A stretch of DNA of 54,803 nucleotides from Christensenellales bacterium (GTDB lineage Bacteria; Bacillota; Clostridia; Christensenellales; UBA3700), in NCBI GenBank assembly GCA_051883395.1, contig JBJETQ010000031.1, positions 1-54,803 on the forward strand, written 5' to 3'. A model generated the notes under the pieces. It searched no databases and was not told where the DNA came from. It saw nothing but the letters and a program-made list of their open reading frames with translations. The position numbers were made by a program, and so were the translations under genes. Shown here in pieces: positions 3,127 through 25,234 of this stretch; position 1 is the stretch's first letter, and every line of letters begins with the position of its first letter.

Positions 3127-4316
3127 ATAAGGATGCTATGAATAAAAAATTTTTATTCAAGATTGTTTTGATTTTGCTCTTGTCCCTGTCGTTATTTTTG
3201 CTGACGGGACAAGTTTGCGCCGAAAGCGACGACCCGATGGAAGAACTTAAAAACGACGTGGAGCAGAACGCCGCAGATCTAGACTTAGACCAACTTCAAG
3301 ATTGGTTGCAACGCTTTGACAACCAAGGCTTGTCCAATCTGAAATCTACAATAATTGTTATTGCAAACGGAGAAATGCAATGGACGTTTGAAGACGCAGT
3401 ATCAATGCTTACTGACGGTTTTTTTTCTTCTTTCAAAAGCGTCTTGCCCATAGTCGTCTGTATAATCGGTATTGCTCTGATTTGTAGTATTCTCAATAGT
3501 CTGACGGGCAGCTTCCTATCCAATCCTACCAAGGAAATTATCAACTTTGTATGTTATTGCGCAGTAGCTTTGATAGTTCTTGGCAAGACAATTTCACTTA
3601 TAACTACTACAGGCACCATAGTAGGCGATATGAAAGACTTTATGCAACTGGTTTTTCCTGTTCTTCTCACTCTGATAACTGTGCTTGGCGGAGTTAGCAG
3701 CGGAGCGGTTTTCAAGCCGATGATGAGCGTTCTTGCCACTTCGATAACGGTACTGGTGTCCGATTATATTCTACCGCTTGTCATTGCGGTAACCGTATTT
3801 ACTCTTATTTCTTCATTGTCAGAAAACATTAAGCTCAGCAAAATCACGGGGTTTTTCAATAGCGGCATCAAATACGTTTTAGGTGCGGTATTCAGTCTGT
3901 TTATTACCTTTCTTACTGCGCAGGGGCTGACGTGTGGTATTATTGACACGGTATCGGTCAAGACGGCAAAATTTGCCGTTCAGAGCTACGTTCCGATAGT
4001 GGGCGGATACTTGTCCGATGGATTTGATTTGATGATGGCTAGCTTTGTACTTATCAAAAATTCGCTTGGGTTGGTTTCTCTTACCGCTATATTTTTGCTT
4101 ATAGTTTCTCCGCTGGTAGAAATTATCGTCTTTTCATTGGGGCTGAAACTTGCCGCAGGAGTAGTAGAACCGTTGACAAATAGTCGTATTTCTAAGATGT
4201 TGTACGATTTGTCCAAAAATCTTAATGTGCTGGTGGCGATAATTCTCGGCGTAGCTTTTATGTTTATCATAACGGTCATGCTTATCATTTACGCATGCAA
4301 TCTGGGGGTGGTGTAA
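3123..4316 (+). CDS. spoIIIAE: Stage III sporulation protein AE
   Basis: Signal peptide, multiple TM segments, KTAKFAVQSYVPIVGGYLSD, IKNSLG, AAGVVEPL. Confidence 0.93.
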   Translation: MNKDAMNKKFLFKIVLILLLSLSLFLLTGQVCAESDDPMEELKNDVEQNAADLDLDQLQDWLQRFDNQGLSNLKSTIIVIANGEMQWTFEDAVSMLTDGFFSSFKSVLPIVVCIIGIALICSILNSLTGSFLSNPTKEIINFVCYCAVALIVLGKTISLITTTGTIVGDMKDFMQLVFPVLLTLITVLGGVSSGAVFKPMMSVLATSITVLVSDYILPLVIAVTVFTLISSLSENIKLSKITGFFNSGIKYVLGAVFSLFITFLTAQGLTCGIIDTVSVKTAKFAVQSYVPIVGGYLSDGFDLMMASFVLIKNSLGLVSLTAIFLLIVSPLVEIIVFSLGLKLAAGVVEPLTNSRISKMLYDLSKNLNVLVAIILGVAFMFIITVMLIIYACNLGVV

Positions 4317-4319
4317 TAA

Positions 4320-4769
4320 ATGAAACAATGGATATTGGCAATAGTGGGCATTGTAGCTCTAGGGGTGCTTGTTGACGTAATTTTACCCGAAGGTCAGAGT
4401 GCTAAATATATCAAAGGCATATTCGGTGTTGTCGTAGTAATTACGATAATTTCTCCGGTAGTAAATTTGTTGAATAACGTTTCTCACAGCAAATTATATT
4501 TTGACAGCAGCGGCATAGAGATTGAAGAAGGGACGTATTCTAATCTTATTGGCAATCTGCAAGAAATAAAAGAACAAGAAATTGCCGACAAACTTGTTGC
4601 GCAAGGTTACTCTCCGTCTGAGATTAAAATTAAATTTTGCGAAGGCAACGATTATAAAGTTGAAAGTATCTGCATATACATACGATGTAACGAAAATGAG
4701 AAGCAAAATATTACGCAAATATTAAGCGTCGACTATAAAGGAGTTAAGATAAATTTTTATGACTGCTAA
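4320..4769 (+). CDS. spoIIIAF: Stage III sporulation protein AF
   Basis: W.L.I....ILPEG..AKYIKGIFG...IISPV; synteny. Confidence 0.88.
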   Translation: MKQWILAIVGIVALGVLVDVILPEGQSAKYIKGIFGVVVVITIISPVVNLLNNVSHSKLYFDSSGIEIEEGTYSNLIGNLQEIKEQEIADKLVAQGYSPSEIKIKFCEGNDYKVESICIYIRCNENEKQNITQILSVDYKGVKINFYDC

Positions 4770-5181
4770 ACAAAACAACGAACAAAACGACAACGAAAGT
4801 CGAATAAGCGTTTTGCAAAAAATCAAAAGCGTCAAACATATAGAAATTATCGTCGCTTTTGTCATAGCGGCGCTGGCGATATTCATATACTTTATCAGCA
4901 CCGGCTATACGACGCAGGAGAGTAGCGCTCAGTACAGTTACTCAGGCGGTAACGAATTGAGCAAGCAGGTGGCGCAGGTGCTGTCAAACGTAGAAGGCGT
5001 AGGCAATTGTAACGTGCTGATAACTTATGAAGACGAAGAGCAAAATCAAATCAAGGGTGTGGTCGTGGTAGCTGACGGCGGAGACAATGTAGAAGTAAAA
5101 ATCAAAATTATCGACGCAGTCTGCGCCCTTGTGGACGTCAAATCGGACAAAATAAAAATATATAAAATGAACAAAGCATAA
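4759..5181 (+). CDS. spoIIIAG: Stage III sporulation protein AG (short form)
   Basis: TM followed by LSNVEGVG.C.VLIT and IKGVVVVADGGDN.EVK..IIDAV. Confidence 0.88.
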   Translation: MTAKQNNEQNDNESRISVLQKIKSVKHIEIIVAFVIAALAIFIYFISTGYTTQESSAQYSYSGGNELSKQVAQVLSNVEGVGNCNVLITYEDEEQNQIKGVVVVADGGDNVEVKIKIIDAVCALVDVKSDKIKIYKMNKA

Positions 5182-5193
5182 TGGAGGTATTTT

Positions 5194-5700
5194 ATGGCAA
5201 AAATCGCAATCAAACCTTTGTCGGCAAATGCAAAAAAGGTAATTATCCTTTGCAGTATGGTGGCACTTCTCGTCATTACCGGCGTACTCAACTTTGTCCT
5301 GACCCGAACGCTCGACAACGAAGATTCGGTATCGGGCGAACCAACCGAAGCAACTTTCTTTTCGGCTTATCGCAGCGACAGAGAGACGTCCAGAGCAGAA
5401 GAATTCAGCTATCTTGACGCAATAATCGCTTCTGCCGATTCTACCGACGAAATCAAAGCAACCGCAACGGCTAAGAAAATGGAACTTCTATCAAATATCG
5501 ACTGCGAACTGGTGGTTGAAAATCTGATAAAGGCAAAGGGCTTTGAAGACGCTGTGGTTACTATGAGTACCAACAACATCAACGTTATCGTTCAGCAAGA
5601 GGAGTTGACAAGCGAGCAGGTAGCACAGATTCTCAGCGTAATTCTCAGCGAAACAGACTACACTCCTTCGCAGGTTGTTATCGTTCCTTATAAAGTATAA
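5194..5700 (+). CDS. spoIIIAH: Stage III sporulation protein AH
   Basis: FFSAYRSDRETSR, ENLIKAKGFEDAVV, LTSEQVAQI; RBS GGAGG. Confidence 0.93.
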   Translation: MAKIAIKPLSANAKKVIILCSMVALLVITGVLNFVLTRTLDNEDSVSGEPTEATFFSAYRSDRETSRAEEFSYLDAIIASADSTDEIKATATAKKMELLSNIDCELVVENLIKAKGFEDAVVTMSTNNINVIVQQEELTSEQVAQILSVILSETDYTPSQVVIVPYKV

Positions 5701-5711
5701 TATAATAATAC

Positions 5712-5740
5712 TTGTCAAAACTTTGCAAATGTGCTAGACT
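5712..5740 (+). promoter_or_regulatory. Putative sigma-A promoter of asp23
   Basis: TTGTCA-17 nt-TAGACT with extended TG. Confidence 0.55.
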
Positions 5741-5761
5741 TTATAAAGCGGAGGTAAAGTT

Positions 5762-6124
5762 ATGGCAAGTAAAGGCAATAACAGCAACCAACAGGACTTG
5801 GATACCTATTTCGGAGTATTGAGTTCGATAGCGGGAAGCAGCGCTTCTTTGGTTGACGGTGTTGCTTCGGTATCATACGAAGCAGGTCTGAACAATCAGT
5901 TTTTCGATTATGGAAAAAATAAGCGAAGCAATGCGATAGACGTCAGATTTTACAAAGACAATCTCGTTACTATCGACGTATCAATCAACGTATATTATGG
6001 CTACAAAATACCTGTCGTGATATGCAATCTACAAGAAAAAATCAAAGAGGATATCGAAAAATCCACTTATTTTAAGGTCAAAGCCATCAACGTAACCGTA
6101 GTGGGAGTGGTATCCAGACACTAG
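5762..6124 (+). CDS. Asp23/Gls24 family envelope stress protein (YqhY-like)
   Basis: IDVSINVYYGYKIP...LQEKIKEDIE...V.AINVTVVGV; usual position before nusB. Confidence 0.85.
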   Translation: MASKGNNSNQQDLDTYFGVLSSIAGSSASLVDGVASVSYEAGLNNQFFDYGKNKRSNAIDVRFYKDNLVTIDVSINVYYGYKIPVVICNLQEKIKEDIEKSTYFKVKAINVTVVGVVSRH

Positions 6125-6126
6125 TC

Positions 6127-6152
6127 AAAAACCCCTTATCAAGGGGCTTTTT
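6127..6152 (+). terminator. Possible intrinsic terminator between asp23 and nusB
   Basis: AAAAACCCCTT-ATC-AAGGGGCTTTTT. Confidence 0.5.
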
Positions 6153-6171
6153 GGCATATATAGGAGATTAT

Positions 6172-6603
6172 ATGACGCAAAAGACAGACGCAATAAGCAG
6201 CAGAAGGACAGCAAGAGACGACGCATATAAATTGATTTTCGGATATTTGTTCAACAAAGAAATCGACGAGCAGACCAGAGCAATGATGCTTGCCGACGAA
6301 ACTTTGAGCGACGATGACGTAAAGTATCTCAATCAGGTAACCGACGGTGTGGTAGAAAAATACGACGAATTGATTGACGTAGTATGTCAGAATGCCAAAA
6401 ATTTTAAGCCTGACAGAATTTACAAGCCTGATTTAGCGGCATTGTTGCTGGCGATATACGAGATGAAATATATCGATTATATACCGCCGAGAGTTTCTAT
6501 AAGCGAAACGGTAGAACTGGTCAAAATTTATTCGACAGAAAAGAGCTACGTCTTTGTCAACGGTGTGTTGTCGGGCGTGTACAAACAGCTCACGCAAGAA
6601 TGA
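6172..6603 (+). CDS. nusB: Transcription antitermination factor NusB
   Basis: SRRTARDDAY, LLLAIYEM, IPPRVSISETVELVKIYS, FVNGVL. Confidence 0.93.
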   Translation: MTQKTDAISSRRTARDDAYKLIFGYLFNKEIDEQTRAMMLADETLSDDDVKYLNQVTDGVVEKYDELIDVVCQNAKNFKPDRIYKPDLAALLLAIYEMKYIDYIPPRVSISETVELVKIYSTEKSYVFVNGVLSGVYKQLTQE

Positions 6604-6615
6604 CGGGAGAAATAT

Positions 6616-7467
6616 ATGCTGATATACGGTAAGGAAGTTTCGGCAAATCTGCGCAATAAAATTGCCGAAAAAGTAGTAGATTTTCAAGATTCAGTCGGCA
6701 GACAACCATGTCTTGCCGTGATTATCATTGGCGAAGACCCTGCGTCAAAGACGTACGTAAAAAACAAAATCAACGGCTGTGCGCAAGTGGGTATTAAGTC
6801 GCTGTCTTATGAATATGCCGACGGCGAACCCCAAGAAAACGTAGCCGCTCGTATTGTTGAGCTGGCGCAAGACGACAGCGTTGACGGAATTCTCGTTCAG
6901 TTGCCTTTGCCAAAGGGTTATGACGAAAAGTATCTTTTGTCGCTTATTCCTGACAGTAAGGACGTTGACGGATTTTCTCCCAACAATCTCGGTCTGCTTG
7001 CTACCAACAATCCGAGAACGGTTTCCTGCACTCCGCTGGGAGTAATGGAACTGCTCAACAGTACTGGTGTTGATTTTAAAGGTAAAAACGCCGTTGTACT
7101 TGGCAGAAGCAATACGGTTGGCAAGCCTATGGCAATGCTGCTTCTCAACGCAGACTGTACTGTTACTGTCTGTCATTCCCGCACTCAAAATCTGTCTGAA
7201 TTTACAAGAAATGCCGATATTCTCGTCGTAGCAATAGGAAAACCTAAGTTTGTTACGGCAGACATGGTAAAGGAGGGCGCAATAGTAATTGACGTAGGTA
7301 TCAACAGAGTGGACGGCAAACTTTGCGGGGATGTAGATTTTGATTCGGTAGAACCAAAGGCTTCTTATATTACTCCCGTTCCCGGCGGAGTCGGACCTAT
7401 GACAATATCTATGTTGCTCTACAATACGCTTTGCGCAGCAGTAGACAGGGAACTTAGCAAAAAATGA
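6616..7467 (+). CDS. folD: Methylenetetrahydrofolate dehydrogenase/cyclohydrolase
   Basis: GILVQLPLP, KDVDG, GRSNTVGKP, ITPVPGGVGPMT. Confidence 0.97.
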   Translation: MLIYGKEVSANLRNKIAEKVVDFQDSVGRQPCLAVIIIGEDPASKTYVKNKINGCAQVGIKSLSYEYADGEPQENVAARIVELAQDDSVDGILVQLPLPKGYDEKYLLSLIPDSKDVDGFSPNNLGLLATNNPRTVSCTPLGVMELLNSTGVDFKGKNAVVLGRSNTVGKPMAMLLLNADCTVTVCHSRTQNLSEFTRNADILVVAIGKPKFVTADMVKEGAIVIDVGINRVDGKLCGDVDFDSVEPKASYITPVPGGVGPMTISMLLYNTLCAAVDRELSKK

Positions 7468-8648
7468 GCGACGTATTAAGCGTAAGCATTCTCAACGGAT
7501 ATATCCATCAGATTTTCGTTGCTGAAGAAATGTTGCACAACGTCAAGGTTGCGGGAGAAATTTCTCAGTATAAAGTCGCCGGCGGACATGCATATTTTGT
7601 TCTCAAAGACGAAAACTGTCAGATAAATTGCACGTATTTCAATTGTCTTGGCGCTTATCAGCCCAAAGCAGGCGAAAGCGTGGTCGTGGAAGGCAGCGTA
7701 GAATATTATGCAAAAGGCGGTAGACTGAATTTTAACGTAAAGTCAATCAAACCGCTTGGCGCAGGTTATCTTGCATTGTTGTTTGAACAACTCAAAAAGA
7801 AACTGAGCGAACAAGGCTATTTTGATTCCCAACACAAAAAACCTATTCCTGAATATTTGAAAAAAGTATGCGTCATTACGTCGGCGCAAGGTGCTGTAAT
7901 TCGTGATATAATTACTACCGTACGCAACAAAAACAACTATATAGATATAGTTGTCAAAGACGTAAGAGTGCAGGGAGAATCGTGCGCAGGCGACATAATA
8001 CGGGCGATAGAGCAAGTTGACTCTATGGGATATGACGCTATAATAATTGCAAGGGGCGGCGGTTCGATAGAAGATTTGCAAGGTTTCAACAGCGAAAATC
8101 TTGTATATGCGATTTACCATGCAAATACGCCTATTATTTCTGCGGTCGGACACGAAACAGATTTTACTCTTTGCGATTTTGTGGCTGATGTGCGTTGCGC
8201 AACTCCGACGGCGGCGGCAAATCTTATAGCCTTTGATACAAAAGAAACGGCATTGTATCTTCAATCTGTCAAAGAAAAATTGATGGAAAAGCTTGAACGA
8301 AAAGCCGAAAATTATGCGTCAAAAAGGCAATTGCTTTATACTACTTTACAAAGTATATTCACCGCCAAGGCAGAGAGAGCAAGCCACAGATGTCAGGACA
8401 ATCTGAAAAATCTCAATCAGGCTATGAGCGATAAAATTTTACAGACCAAAATGTCTATGCAGCATCTGCTTACAAAATTCAAATCGCTAGACCCGGTTTT
8501 TAGCGTAGAAAAGGGGTTGTGGAGCGTCAGTTGCGACGGCAAACCGCTCACCGAGCCTACACAAGCAAAAGTCAATCAACAAATTCAGCTGAAATCTGTC
8601 AAAGGAAAGCTGACGGCAATAGTTACGGAGGTGTCCAATGAACTTTGA
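7464..8648 (+). CDS. xseA: Exodeoxyribonuclease VII large subunit
   Basis: GHAYFVLKDE, IIARGGGSIEDL, ISAVGHETDFTLCDFVAD.R.ATPTAAA. Confidence 0.96.
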   Translation: MSDVLSVSILNGYIHQIFVAEEMLHNVKVAGEISQYKVAGGHAYFVLKDENCQINCTYFNCLGAYQPKAGESVVVEGSVEYYAKGGRLNFNVKSIKPLGAGYLALLFEQLKKKLSEQGYFDSQHKKPIPEYLKKVCVITSAQGAVIRDIITTVRNKNNYIDIVVKDVRVQGESCAGDIIRAIEQVDSMGYDAIIIARGGGSIEDLQGFNSENLVYAIYHANTPIISAVGHETDFTLCDFVADVRCATPTAAANLIAFDTKETALYLQSVKEKLMEKLERKAENYASKRQLLYTTLQSIFTAKAERASHRCQDNLKNLNQAMSDKILQTKMSMQHLLTKFKSLDPVFSVEKGLWSVSCDGKPLTEPTQAKVNQQIQLKSVKGKLTAIVTEVSNEL

Positions 8649-20825: not shown

Positions 20826-22097
20826 TCAATTAATATGGAAATATTTTGATTTAAACAATAAGTCATATACGACAATACTCAAAGGAATATTTATCAACAT
20901 CACCAACGGAACAATGATTGGTTTGACAGTTGTTGCCGGCTCCTGGAAATTTGCTCCGCCGGCAAAATATCCTACAATTACTATAATGACTATCAGATTT
21001 ATTACCAAAATCAATGAGTTGATAAGAGCAGTCTTAACGTTAAATGCCGCCAGCGAGCGTTTATTTGGTGCCAGCCACATTTTTATACCGACAACAATCG
21101 GTGCGGCAACGCAAGCCAAAATACACAATACCAACGGAGTAACCGACGTGTAATTGAGCGTAAAATGCGCAACCATTATTTCGATAAAAAAGAGTATCGA
21201 CATAATTGCTACGGTAAAAAACAAGAGTTTATTTGGCTTATAATATTTGCCTACGTAGTATTCGGTTGTATTCTTCTTGACGTAAGGTCTGATAGTGTAG
21301 CCTTCGGTGGCAAATTTATTTTTCAATTCACTCAGCGTCAAAAAGTCAAAATCGTCGTCGTTGACAACTGCCGTCGGTTCAATGACTGAACCGCCAGATT
21401 TGGTATAAAGACTTTCAAAGCTCGAAATATAATTTACGTTTGAATTTTCGCTCATTGTAGGCATATCAGGCAAAACGGTAGGTTCAGGTTTCTGAGCTTT
21501 TGCAACAGCGTCAAAACTAAATGATTCTTCAAAGGTATTGTTGTGCTGCGGAGCATAAGAAATCTGTGGTTGAACAGCAGGTTGAGCTTCTTGCTGACGA
21601 ACCGCTTGCGGCTCAGGCATATTTACGATTTCTTCATCTTCCGAAGAATCTTGTAATTGAGCAAAAGAATTATCAGCTATCGTCTTAGGTGCAGAAGGTT
21701 GTCTCTTTGTCATAGGTCTGAGCGCCGAAGCGTCAAATGGCGGAGCAGTATTGGGGTCGTACTTTTTGTCAGAAAGTAAATTGTCTATTATCGTACGGCT
21801 GTATTCCCATTGATACTGGTCAGTCAGAACAAAATTTTTGCCTGCTTCCGAAAGAGTATAATAGACTCTTTGCGCACCGTTTGACATTGCCCCTTTATAA
21901 GAGCTTATATAGCCCAATTTTTCTAGTCTTTTGAGACAGCTGTAAAGAGTAGGCTGTTTGAGAGTGTACAAACCTTGACTTTTTTCTTTGATTTCATTGA
22001 GAATTTCCAAGCCGTATTTATCTTCATTCAAAAGAGAACGAAGAATAATTGTATCGACGTGGCTTCTTATCAAGTCAATGTTTGCATTGTTGTCCAT
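20826..22097 (-). CDS. PadR-family wHTH protein with long polar linker and C-terminal membrane domain
   Basis: IIL..L...DKYGLEI, TLYSCLKRLEKLGYI, RVYYTLSEAG; about 4 hydrophobic helices at the C-terminus. Confidence 0.82.
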   Translation of the reverse strand: MDNNANIDLIRSHVDTIILRSLLNEDKYGLEILNEIKEKSQGLYTLKQPTLYSCLKRLEKLGYISSYKGAMSNGAQRVYYTLSEAGKNFVLTDQYQWEYSRTIIDNLLSDKKYDPNTAPPFDASALRPMTKRQPSAPKTIADNSFAQLQDSSEDEEIVNMPEPQAVRQQEAQPAVQPQISYAPQHNNTFEESFSFDAVAKAQKPEPTVLPDMPTMSENSNVNYISSFESLYTKSGGSVIEPTAVVNDDDFDFLTLSELKNKFATEGYTIRPYVKKNTTEYYVGKYYKPNKLLFFTVAIMSILFFIEIMVAHFTLNYTSVTPLVLCILACVAAPIVVGIKMWLAPNKRSLAAFNVKTALINSLILVINLIVIIVIVGYFAGGANFQEPATTVKPIIVPLVMLINIPLSIVVYDLLFKSKYFHIN

Positions 22098-22238
22098 AAA
22101 TACACCTCAACAAAATAATACATTATTTTCAACAAAAAATCAACCTTTATTATAATAATAAAGCAGAGTAGTTAAATTACTGCATCTTATTAAAATTATA
22201 TTCTATCAAAATCATCGGACAATATCGTCAAAATTGTT

Positions 22239-22268
22239 AAAAAAAGGTCTCGCTTTTGACGAGACCTT
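22239..22268 (-). terminator. Terminator of the hypothetical gene 22278-22667
   Basis: AAGGTCTCG-N7-CGAGACCTT with T7 on the minus strand. Confidence 0.75.
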
Positions 22269-22277
22269 TATATTAAG

Positions 22278-22667
22278 TTATTTTCTTGATCTTGAACCAA
22301 CCTGCTTCTTAATTCTCTTTGTTGGTATCATCAAAATGATGAAGAAGATAATGAGATATACGATTGGGCTGGTAGCCGTGCTTTGCGTAGCGTCATTGTT
22401 ATTTAAATATTCGTCGGTCGCATTGAACACAATGCCGGAACCTGCATCACCTTTTACATAAGCAATATTGATGCCTACAAAAGGAATAGTATCGTAAGTA
22501 ACTGATTCGATTTTACCGGCTTCAACAGAGTCGCCTGTGCCTGACATGTCAAAAGATGCAATAGCAATACTACCGTCATTAAATCCAATTACGTTATATT
22601 CCAATGCAAAACTTGCAACAAGTAATACGATAAGTATCAATTTGAACAATATTTTCAAAAATCTCAT
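22278..22667 (-). CDS. Hypothetical membrane protein (N- and C-terminal TM segments)
   Basis: RBS AAGGAG, own TTGACA..TATAAT promoter and terminator; two hydrophobic segments and a basic tail. Confidence 0.7.
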   Translation of the reverse strand: MRFLKILFKLILIVLLVASFALEYNVIGFNDGSIAIASFDMSGTGDSVEAGKIESVTYDTIPFVGINIAYVKGDAGSGIVFNATDEYLNNNDATQSTATSPIVYLIIFFIILMIPTKRIKKQVGSRSRK

Positions 22668-22997
22668 AATAAATCTCCTTGCTTCATTTCATATTTATAT
22701 TATAATACTATTAAAAATTATGTCAATAATCTAGCCAAAAATTATAAAAATTTTTGAACATTATGCACTATTTTTGTCGCTTTTTATCAGCAGGGTATAG
22801 AGTAAAATTCAAAAAATAATCAATTAAATAATCTTAGAATAACCTTATAACCATTAAAAGCGAAAATGAAATTGGTTGTCATAAAAATATGTATGATTAT
22901 ACTATCATTTAATAAAATTATTGACAAAATTTATTTCATTGTCAAAAGGGGACAGAGTGTTATTTGTCGTATTTTGAGAAAATAGTGATACAAATAT

Positions 22998-23027
22998 CTA
23001 TTCGCAAAACACAACCTTTGCGAATAG
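22998..23027. other. Candidate dif-like recombination site (11-8-11 perfect inverted repeat)
   Basis: CTATTCGCAAA-ACACAACC-TTTGCGAATAG in an AT-rich intergenic region about 300 bp upstream of a lone tyrosine recombinase. Confidence 0.6.
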
Positions 23028-23296
23028 TAAGTGGATAATTATTATAAATTAATCAAAATATGATAATTATTTTTCGATATTTATAATTGAATATTATATT
23101 GTTGCTTTTAATTAATATTATTGTTTGACAAGTCTATAAATGCTCTGAAAATTATTTTATTATTCATTTTACATACAATTTGCCCTTCAAATTCTGTAAT
23201 TCGATTTTATCCAAGCAATACGTTATAGTGGTCAAATTTTATGGCGTTGTGATTTGTCAAAAATTGCAATCAAATGAATAATCGGTCGTTTAGTTA

Positions 23297-23325
23297 TTGA
23301 AGTTTGACGATTGATGTGGTATAAT
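23297..23325 (+). promoter_or_regulatory. Sigma-A promoter of the recombinase (probably leaderless)
   Basis: TTGAAG-17 nt-TATAAT with extended TG, then 6 nt to ATG 23332. Confidence 0.65.
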
Positions 23326-23331
23326 TTAGCT

Positions 23332-24399
23332 ATGGACAATGATTCTTATTTTGAACAAAGAAAAATAAACACAATAACTAAGTTAAGGGAAATCAAAATG
23401 CAACTTCCCTTTATTTGCAACGAATATTTTATGGGAATTCAGAACAGCACGTCAGAACTTACTCAGTTGGGATACGCATCTGATTTGAGATTGTTTTTTG
23501 AATTTTTGACCACACAGATATTGGAATTTCAAAATGTGAATATACGTTCGTTTAATTATCAAAATCTGCAAGACGTAACTACGACACATATCGAGATGTT
23601 TCTCGAATACGTTACTTACTACGAGTCTGACGGTAAATCTCACCACAATTCTTTGAAGACAAAAGCTAGAAAATTAGCTTCTTTGAAGTCATTTTTTAAG
23701 TATAATTACAACAAAAACAACATATTTTGCGATCCTGCCGCCAAAGTTATGACGCCAAAACTACTGGAAAAACCGATAATTCGCCTTGACGTAAACGAAG
23801 TGGTCGAATTACTCAACGCAGTTGAAGATGGCGAAGGTTTGTCCCGTCAACAGCAGACTTATCACAATCGTACAGCTAAGCGAGATTTAGCAATTATGAC
23901 CTTGTTTCTTGGCACCGGAATAAGAATTTCCGAACTTGTAGGACTCAATATTGACGATATTGATTTTACCAACAACGCATTCAAAATAACCCGAAAAGGC
24001 GGCAATCAGACAATTTTGTATTTTGGGGACGAAGTTGCCCAAGCTTTGTTGCAATATCTTGACGAACGAGCAAAAAATCAGCAGCAGGACCAACAACCTG
24101 CATTGTTTTTATCATTGCAAAACAAGCGTATCAACGTACGTACAGTCCAAAACTTAGTTAAAAAATACGCTAAAATCGTTACTCCGCTCAAACATATTAC
24201 TCCGCACAAACTTCGTAGCACTTACGGCACTACCCTGTATCAAAATACCAACGATATATACGTAGTTGCCGAAGTTTTGGGACATAAAGACATCAATACT
24301 ACAAAAAAACACTATGCTGCAATAAGCGACGAAATAAAACGTGCCGCATCCAAAAAGGTTACTTTGCGTGATAACGTCGAGCAGGAAAAGAGCGAATAA
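23332..24399 (+). CDS. Tyrosine recombinase, XerS/XerC-like
   Basis: Catalytic R (GIRISEL), K (TRKGG), HKLR, LGH and Y (KHYA); about 355 aa; adjacent to lexA with no phage genes. Confidence 0.9.
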   Translation: MDNDSYFEQRKINTITKLREIKMQLPFICNEYFMGIQNSTSELTQLGYASDLRLFFEFLTTQILEFQNVNIRSFNYQNLQDVTTTHIEMFLEYVTYYESDGKSHHNSLKTKARKLASLKSFFKYNYNKNNIFCDPAAKVMTPKLLEKPIIRLDVNEVVELLNAVEDGEGLSRQQQTYHNRTAKRDLAIMTLFLGTGIRISELVGLNIDDIDFTNNAFKITRKGGNQTILYFGDEVAQALLQYLDERAKNQQQDQQPALFLSLQNKRINVRTVQNLVKKYAKIVTPLKHITPHKLRSTYGTTLYQNTNDIYVVAEVLGHKDINTTKKHYAAISDEIKRAASKKVTLRDNVEQEKSE

Positions 24400-24462
24400 A
24401 ATTTAGCTGCTTATATCACTTTGAATAAATCGGATAAAATTTTAAAATATTATAATTTTTAT

Positions 24463-24498
24463 TTGATTTTTAATCAAAATATATTGATTTTTAATCAA
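24463..24498. repeat. Tandem pair of palindromes TTGATT-TTT-AATCAA
   Basis: Identical 15-mers at 24463-24477 and 24484-24498. Confidence 0.8.
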
Positions 24499-24554
24499 AT
24501 TATATGGGTTTTAAGATAGCATATGAAAATTTTTATAATATATTAAAATATTTG

Positions 24555-24583
24555 TTGCAAAAAACAAACGTATGTGCTAAAAT
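24555..24583 (+). promoter_or_regulatory. lexA promoter with possible degenerate SOS box
   Basis: TTGCAA-17 nt-TAAAAT with extended TG; AAAC-GTAT-GTGC in the spacer vs the Firmicute GAAC-N4-GTTC. Confidence 0.55.
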
Positions 24584-24601
24584 CTGATTAAGGAGAAGAT
24601 T

Positions 24602-25234
24602 ATGGCATACTCAAAATCTGCTCAGAAATTGGAGCAAACGTATCAATTTATCAAAGATTTTGTCTCGAAAAACAATTATCCGCCTAGCGTCAGAGAGATT
24701 TGCAGCGTTGTCGGTTTTAAGTCTACGGCTTCGGCACAATATTATCTTACCAGACTCGAAGAAAGCGGTCTGATACGCAAATCGGGCGGCAAAAACCGCA
24801 CAATTGAGATTGTATCCAATGACAAAATTCACGACTCCAAAGACGATAAAGTGCCGTTTTTGGGCAATATTGCGGCAGGCGAACCTTTGCTTGCTGCCGT
24901 TGAAGTTGATCAGGCTTACTCTCTCCCAAGCGATTTTTTCCGATATGACGACCATAGTTTTTTGCTCAAAGTCAAAGGAAGTTCAATGATTGACGCCGGC
25001 ATACTTGACGGAGATATGGTGCTTATCAACGCCCAAAACGACGCTAAGAACGGCGATATAATTGTCGCTCAAATCAACAACGAAGAAGTTACGCTCAAAA
25101 GATTTTTCAAAGAAAAAGACTATATAAGGCTTCACCCGGAAAATAGTTTTATGCAAGACATCATAGTTGGTCAAGACGAACAATTCAGAGTTTTGGGAGT
25201 AATATCTGGTTTGTTGCGCAACAAGTTCAGATAA
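24602..25234 (+). CDS. lexA: SOS repressor LexA
   Basis: YPPSVREI HTH, AAG cleavage site, GSSM catalytic Ser, TLKR catalytic Lys. Confidence 0.96.
   Translation: MAYSKSAQKLEQTYQFIKDFVSKNNYPPSVREICSVVGFKSTASAQYYLTRLEESGLIRKSGGKNRTIEIVSNDKIHDSKDDKVPFLGNIAAGEPLLAAVEVDQAYSLPSDFFRYDDHSFLLKVKGSSMIDAGILDGDMVLINAQNDAKNGDIIVAQINNEEVTLKRFFKEKDYIRLHPENSFMQDIIVGQDEQFRVLGVISGLLRNKFR

Follow-up and report, generated by a model that had tools for sequence, protein, structure and literature searches.

A 28-bp palindrome at the replication terminus of a Christensenellales bacterium is a probable dif site served by a single Xer-type recombinase

A 28-bp palindrome and the tyrosine recombinase gene located 304 bp downstream of it are, with a probability that we put at about 0.85 judging from their sequences, the dif site of a bacterial chromosome and a single Xer-type recombinase acting there. 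Both lie in a stretch of 54,803 nucleotides from a Christensenellales bacterium (contig JBJETQ010000031.1 of assembly GCA_051883395.1, positions 1 to 54,803 of the forward strand), which was analysed as a whole and is referred to below as the window. The observations behind this proposal are the terminus position of the site, its conservation and uniqueness, the intact catalytic residues of the recombinase, the failure to find another Xer-type gene, and the use of the site by a microvirus in a relative. An earlier note on the same DNA had suggested a single recombinase and a dif-type site forming one dimer-resolution module, and this suggestion is borne out by the conservation of the site, its single copy, the skew switch and the lack of a XerC/XerD pair.

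A perfect inverted repeat, CTATTCGCAAA-ACACAACC-TTTGCGAATAG, is located at 22998-23027, exactly where the earlier note had placed it. Within it, at 22999..23026 (no strand), lies the 28-bp dif-type recombination site TATTCGCAAAA-CACAAC-CTTTGCGAATA, which consists of a left arm (22999-23009), an asymmetric centre (23010-23015) and a right arm (23016-23026). When up to three mismatches were allowed, the window contained a single match to the inverted repeat and 100 shuffled sequences contained no match. In the genome to which the window belongs (1,286,230 bp in 51 contigs, 89% complete), the palindrome is present in the single copy that had been anticipated, and a scan of the same genome found each 11-mer arm to be likewise confined to the palindrome locus. 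The surrounding gene-free stretch is 664 bp long (22668-23331) with a G+C content of 23.3%, versus 40% for the window, in line with the description of a palindrome standing alone in about 650 bp of AT-rich non-coding DNA. This stretch is bordered by diverging genes, i.e., an open reading frame (ORF) of 129 amino acids (aa) on the − strand (22278-22667) and the recombinase gene on the + strand (from 23332). No gene end is found near the palindrome on either strand in the gene map of the window.

The site and the gene are conserved together among relatives. An orthologue of the recombinase, one per genome, was found in 36 of 41 relatives, and its identity to the window protein is 73-84% within the genus, falling to 54-68% at the level of the family and 48-56% at that of the order. 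With one genome taken per species, a scan confirmed at least 598 relatives, and about 5900 such stretches are estimated for the collection; among the matches listed, the titles of the relatives include Christensenella, Christensenellaceae, many unclassified Clostridia, genera of Lachnospiraceae, and Oscillospiraceae. When the class was sampled evenly, 74 of 301 genomes were matched at E ≤ 1e-60, comprising 44 close orthologues (E ≤ 1e-111) and 30 second-tier homologues. For the site, a set of 110 loci was reduced to 105 by leaving out five with less than 150 bp of upstream DNA, and a site was called at no more than five mismatches over 22 specified positions. Under this rule the site is present in 84 of the 105 loci, always upstream of the gene (84/84) at a distance of 40-2702 bp; the same search gave 10 matches in 1100 shuffled loci. 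The palindrome is therefore kept upstream of the gene in different genera, families and orders, as had been expected of such a module. Within the genus, the DNA ahead of the gene has diverged except at the promoter and at the site together with its immediate flanks.

Thirty-one relatives contain a match to the site pattern, 24 of them a single match and seven of them two. Second matches at G015:C8:59891, G020:C1:144303 and G028:C1:1776192 lie far from the recombinase gene, and one of these is identical in two species of one genus. In several assemblies a contig breaks off only a few hundred bases away from the site or from the gene (G008:C7:38, G032:C1:569, G011:C140:233, G011:C119:1 and G039:C11:94; also loci L040 and L077), for which differences between strains or insertions at the site could be the cause. 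Second-tier homologues from other families of the class, with 31-35% identity, were inspected at four loci, L134 (genome G333), L137 (G288), L138 (G046) and L139 (G051). Two of the four are located beside lexA, and no comparable palindrome was found within 2.5 kb upstream of any of them.

The related sites also define the architecture of the recombination unit. Across the 84 sites, the family consensus is TATTCGYAAAA-N6-TTTTRCGAATA, in which arm positions 3, 5, 6 and 9-11 are nearly invariant across orders. The centre measures 6 bp in every site of this register and is palindromic in none of the 84, while the two arms match fully in 30 sites and differ at a single base in another 25. The innermost base of the right arm is T in 72 of the 84 sites, with A at the mirror position in 83, and it is C in place of T in the genus of the window. 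Because of this C, the repeat takes on an 11-8-11 look in the genus, and the earlier note had accordingly described an 11-8-11 site with a loxP/FRT-like 8-bp core. This geometry is not sustained by the relatives, since by comparison of their sequences the unit is 11-6-11 and the 8-bp spacer arises from a chance single-base difference in the genus. The site of relative G280 (L136, G280:C1:110000-121000, 4122-6656) reads ATTGCGCATAA-TATATA-ATATGCGCAAT.

The position of the site agrees with that of a replication terminus. GC skew in the window is +0.13 at the left end and −0.10 to −0.19 on the right, with the change of sign at 22-25 kb. The cumulative G-C curve peaks at 21966 and forms a plateau to about 25000, and the + strand carries the long ORFs up to 20.8 kb, the − strand nearly all of them from 25.3 kb. 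The switch of skew and the convergence of ORFs together point to the place where two replication arms meet, and a replication terminus zone is therefore assigned to 21966..25000 (no strand). Consistently, in five relatives assembled as single contigs the orthologue lies at 0.519 (G009), 0.483 (G218), 0.521 (G280), about 0.52 (G028) and about 0.51 (G033) of the chromosome from dnaA, the sizes of the last two chromosomes being rounded, and in a sixth such genome, G333, the distant homologue lies at 0.505. Over a 400-kb stretch of G009 with the gene at its centre, a single site with four or fewer mismatches was found, at 1,472,363; the cumulative G-C curve reaches its maximum at 1,472,558, less than 200 bp from this site. 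A location at the GC-skew switch is described for dif by Kono (2011, PMC3025954). The site studied here is unique in its genome and at the GC-skew switch, and its gene lies opposite the origin in the closed relatives, the three properties by which dif is generally recognised.

We also looked at oligomers that might guide a translocase toward the site. Of two FtsK/SpoIIIE guide motifs, GAAGAAG faces the site in 15 of its 17 occurrences in the window and in 78 of 108 in G009, and GAGAAGGG does so in 10 of 14 occurrences in G009. An unbiased oligomer search in G009 returned purine-rich 7- and 8-mers skewed by up to 100:5. No guide motif is claimed, because the skews are confounded by gene orientation and the two guide motifs are not transferable to this genome of 40% G+C.

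The gene at 23332..24399 (+ strand) encodes the Xer-type tyrosine recombinase of 355 aa, which matches the enzyme of about 355 aa, some 300 bp downstream and with all catalytic residues, that had been noted before. Its PF00589 domain scores 123.8 bits against a cut-off of 27.1, an N-terminal SAM-like domain is present too, and an alignment of 14 family members shows no variation at the catalytic residues R198, K222, H292, R295, H318 and Y328. The protein thus carries both the domain and the R-K-H-R-H/W-Y residues that define the tyrosine recombinase superfamily. The ATG at 23332 is backed as the start since orthologues align from residues 1-5, and an AlphaFold model shows a two-domain fold with a mean predicted local distance difference test score of 84.7.

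Its assignment within the Xer proteins was examined using curated models. The window protein stays below the cut-off of each of them, namely XerA (NF040815, 176 bits vs. 220), XerS (NF003462, 173 vs. 267), XerC (TIGR02224, 172 vs. 335) and XerD (TIGR02225, 159 vs. 330). XerA gives the highest NCBIfam score for the window protein, and XerS is the best curated family by E-value (1.4e-61) among the 14 members scanned. The closest sequences in the PDB are XerA (E = 3.1e-20) and XerD, with a weak match to XerH (E = 4.4e-7). Foldseek aligned the AlphaFold model with XerA (best E-value), XerH, XerD, Tn1549 Int, lambda Int and Cre, and the highest query-normalised template modelling score was that of XerH (TMq 0.58 over 357 columns). 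The scores below the XerS, XerA, XerC and XerD cut-offs indicate a separate family, so that the gene called XerS-like in the earlier note does not belong to the curated XerS family. By its sequence, the recombinase is a member of a family apart from these curated groups that would work like XerS, XerH or XerA.

Copies of the site were also found in viruses. The consensus site pattern has exact copies in 18 viral contigs, and two control patterns, a one-base variant and a scrambled palindrome of the same make-up, have none. The variant of the window's own genus (C at position 18) was found in no viral contig. All 18 viral copies carry T at position 1 of both arms, a base outside the pattern's requirement. 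One record (L157/L159, 8661 bp) is a piece of a host terminus, with ynbB, lexA, the orthologue (55.6% identity) and then the site at 3571. After this site come 4.9 kb with microvirus-like genes for a replication initiator, a pilot protein and a major capsid protein, and a second site with two mismatches at 8478 closes the microvirus-like segment. As read from the sequence, the arrangement is that expected of an integrase-less element after insertion by a host Xer recombinase. Use of the site as a target by integrase-less mobile elements that rely on host Xer, another hallmark of dif, is accordingly seen in a relative, not in the window. Among the 18 viral loci, only L157 encodes the recombinase within 4 kb of the site.

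In 11 of the 18 viral contigs (L141, L142, L146-L151, L153, L154 and L156), the site lies directly ahead of the operon for the terminase large subunit of tailed phages, and in L142 and L151 phage replication genes lie on its other side. In another four viral contigs (L140, L144, L152 and L155; 89-126 kb, 30% G+C), the site is found between an ORF of 917-1187 aa and a dUTPase gene. Tyrosine recombinase genes are present in three of five site-bearing tailed-phage records and serine recombinase genes in none, four of these five records being incomplete. Cre acts at loxP for phage P1. By analogy, the host enzyme may perhaps circularise or resolve the genomes of the tailed phages that carry the site.

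The likely working of the module can be drawn from tyrosine recombinases in general and from XerS, XerH and XerCD. Each 11-bp arm would be bound by one recombinase monomer, and in a chromosome dimer the FtsK translocase, which is encoded with its gamma domain in the same genome (G000:C33), would probably bring about the pairing of the two copies of dif at the division septum. Tyr328 would cut at both edges of the 6-bp centre, and two pairs of strand exchanges via a Holliday junction would convert the dimer to monomers. Since the arms are nearly identical, the direction of the site would be given only by the non-palindromic centre and, in the genus, by one base of the right arm. Binding, the cleavage positions, FtsK dependence and a dimer-resolution phenotype are what knowledge of the family would lead one to expect.

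Several observations weigh against a conserved module of one site and one enzyme. The counts given above are not independent, since the 110 loci were drawn from two genome collections that overlap and are themselves related by descent. No site was called at the threshold in 21 of the 105 loci, several of which hold recognisable palindromic variants at six mismatches, and 10 of the 41 relatives have no match to the site pattern. Five of the 41 (G003, G013, G014, G035 and G038) lack the orthologue. Three of these, G014, G035 and G038, lack it though 95-97% complete, and they have no Xer-like match whatever at E ≤ 1e-20; these three genomes may have lost their terminus contig during binning, or else they are devoid of the system. 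The oligomer skews, confounded as they are by gene orientation, belong on this side as well. The remaining points concern the number of recombinases: XerD exceeds its curated cut-off in two of the 41 relatives (G025 and G029), a second Xer-like gene of about 300 aa is found in G001, G002 and G006 (all of the window's genus) and in G021, G031 and G040, and, the window's own genome being 89% complete, a second xer gene could sit in its missing part.

These last points would favour a real dif at which the enzyme does not act alone, a second recombinase or accessory protein, unrecognised or missing from the assembly, sharing the reaction as XerC does with XerD. In G001, G002 and G006, the additional protein (about 302 aa) reaches about 220 bits with the XerD model, and in G280 a second recombinase-like frame (26% identity) is present between the site and the orthologue. 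On the other hand, the arms are identical or one base apart in 55 of the 84 sites, which fits one binding specificity, and in many relatives that are 93-99% complete (e.g., G004, G005, G019, G032 and G036) the recombinase is the only Xer-like match at E ≤ 1e-20. XerC is above its curated cut-off in none of the 41 relatives. In the window's own genome two PF00589 genes were found, the second of which (contig C50) encodes a 405-aa phage-type integrase beside a cI/RstR-like repressor, and no other Xer-type recombinase was found in this 89% complete assembly. The earlier note had allowed for a canonical xerC/xerD elsewhere at the skew switch; no such pair was found in the 89% complete genome or in most relatives, and the switch is at the site itself. 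We therefore regard a hidden partner as improbable.

A palindrome between two diverging genes might also be an operator for a dimeric factor, e.g., the recombinase as its own repressor, the PadR-like protein encoded nearby, or LexA. The half-site CTATTCGYAAAA stands by itself next to, or overlapping, the −35 element of the recombinase gene in 14 of the 105 loci (L010, L034, L039, L043, L052, L058, L080, L081, L085, L089, L090, L099, L102 and L105), compared with 0.7% of control windows. This suggests that the recombinase regulates its own gene in those 14 lineages, which is not evident in the window, and the protein may thus be a self-regulator in addition. For the palindrome itself, however, the distance to the gene varies from 40 to 2702 bp over the 84 loci, the gene of seryl-tRNA synthetase, enolase or a PP-loop ATPase intervenes where the site is far, less than 200 bp separates the site from the GC-skew switch in G009, and the site serves as a prophage insertion point. 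Because of the intervening housekeeping genes and the link to the skew switch, an operator is very unlikely. The palindrome would not fit the Gram-positive LexA box, GAAC-N4-GTTC.

An equally slim chance is given to an integrated mobile element, in which the gene would encode either an integrase, the palindrome being its attachment site, or an invertase that targets the palindrome. The protein does match phage integrase profiles (phrog_1, 139 bits), and copies of the site occur in viral contigs as described above. Nevertheless, there is one copy of the site rather than two flanking copies, no phage genes flank the pair in the window, and each genome has one orthologue whose identity falls with taxonomic distance. 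The neighbours are conserved (lexA at 70 of the 105 loci, ynbB at 39), and in five closed genomes the gene keeps the same place opposite dnaA. The single site per genome, the descent by taxonomy, the conserved neighbours and the fixed position are the reasons for setting this explanation aside.

The chance that the palindrome is instead an RNA hairpin, i.e., a terminator or a regulatory stem-loop, is close to nil: it folds at −13.9 kcal/mol (z = −4.3), yet no gene ends there on either strand, a T-rich tail on either strand accompanies only 28 of the 84 related sites, the arm sequence itself is conserved across orders beyond what pairing would need, and an Rfam scan of 22000-25000 gave two sub-threshold matches only, neither at the palindrome. 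A simple terminator scan flagged its − strand as terminator-like, with the weak tail ATATTTGTAT, and the terminator was rejected since this tail is not conserved and no gene ends there. The earlier note was thus right about the missing gene end, and its statement that there is no T-tail does not stand.

Returning to the recombinase gene, a promoter is predicted at 23297..23325 (+ strand), with −35 TTGAAG, a 17-nt spacer and a TG-extended −10 TATAAT (10 of 12 consensus positions plus the TG). It is conserved in six species of the genus, unlike the remaining spacer. The −10 element ends 6 nt before the ATG and no Shine-Dalgarno-like motif was found ahead of this ATG; hence the recombinase mRNA, from its predicted transcription start, is probably leaderless. 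Among related loci, a −10-like hexamer lies 3-15 nt from the start in 47 of 105 and a Shine-Dalgarno-like motif in 22 of 105, a count that missed the window's own promoter as an earlier ATG had been taken as the start. A further block, GCGTTGTGATTTGTC (23245-23262), about 70 bp 5′ of the recombinase start, is conserved in the genus, with GCGTTGYSATTTGTC present in five species.

Downstream of the recombinase gene, lexA (24602..25234, + strand) was identified by TIGR00498 at 199.9 bits, over the cut-off. Among 105 loci having at least 700 bp of downstream sequence, 70 carry it 3′ of the recombinase gene in the same orientation, and it is regarded as a conserved neighbour with no role in the recombination mechanism implied. 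ynbB occurs near the gene in 39 loci. On the other side, at 20826-22097 (− strand), a 423-aa protein carries, by domain search, a PadR domain at its N-terminus only; homologues of this protein are encoded near the recombinase gene in 31 loci, upstream on the opposite strand in 26 of these.

For Clostridia, chromosome dimers have been presumed to be resolved as in the XerC/XerD model of Bacillus. The module described here is very probably, as far as sequence comparison can tell, a one-enzyme version of a known system and widespread in gut Clostridia, and it offers a testable alternative to XerC/XerD in a large group of gut bacteria, most of which are uncultured. The site could be used as a marker of the replication terminus in fragmented metagenome assemblies, and the module accounts for the position at which integrase-less phages insert in these hosts. 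With a 355-aa enzyme and a short, near-symmetric 28-bp target, it is also a candidate tool for integration and excision in Clostridia that are hard to engineer. A broader and far more tentative reading, to which we assign a minor chance, is that the family is the sole dimer-resolution system of a large share of Clostridia, making it a third bacterial single-recombinase Xer lineage, with an almost perfectly symmetric dif and a site exploited by microviruses and tailed phages. No description of a single-recombinase Xer system in Clostridia was found in the literature searched, which excluded subscription journals and included passages of Kono 2011 (PMC3025954), Le Bourgeois 2007 (PMC1914069), Castillo 2017 (PMC5357621), Smyshlyaev 2021 (PMC8138268) and Garcia 2021 (PMC8136486).

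The module can be compared with four known systems. In streptococci and lactococci, XerS is a single recombinase of about 356 aa encoded beside its site difSL as a terminus module (PMC1914069; PMC5357621), and the window likewise has an apparently lone recombinase of similar size next to its site, the two forming one terminus module. difSL is 31 bp long, with unequal arms and an 11-bp centre (PMC5357621). The window site, in contrast, has 28 bp, a 6-bp centre and near-identical arms, and its hosts are Clostridia rather than Streptococcaceae. The left arms share an inner run of A (TTTCCGAAAA in difSL vs. ATTCGCAAAA in the window); the resemblance that the earlier note had drawn between them remains as a loose likeness, with only 7 of 10 positions matching. 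XerH/difH of Helicobacter and Campylobacter (PDB 5jk0, 5jjv) also pairs a single recombinase, of 354-362 aa, with a site near its gene, and the difH arm AGTTATGAAAA, which ends in GAAAA, shares the inner AAAA of the window arm. XerH differs in its weak sequence similarity, in the unequal arms of difH (PMC5357621) and in belonging to a different phylum. Archaeal XerA (PDB 4a8e, 5hxy) is a single recombinase acting on a 28-bp dif; it is, however, an archaeal protein of about 280 aa reported to be independent of FtsK (PMC5357621), whereas the genome of the window encodes FtsK with a gamma domain. With XerC/XerD and their 28-bp dif, finally, the module shares the classical 11-6-11 geometry (PMC5357621), the position at the GC-skew switch and the hijacking by integrase-less phages, and it departs from them in having an apparently single enzyme instead of two paralogues, symmetric instead of differentiated arms, and scores far below the XerC and XerD cut-offs.

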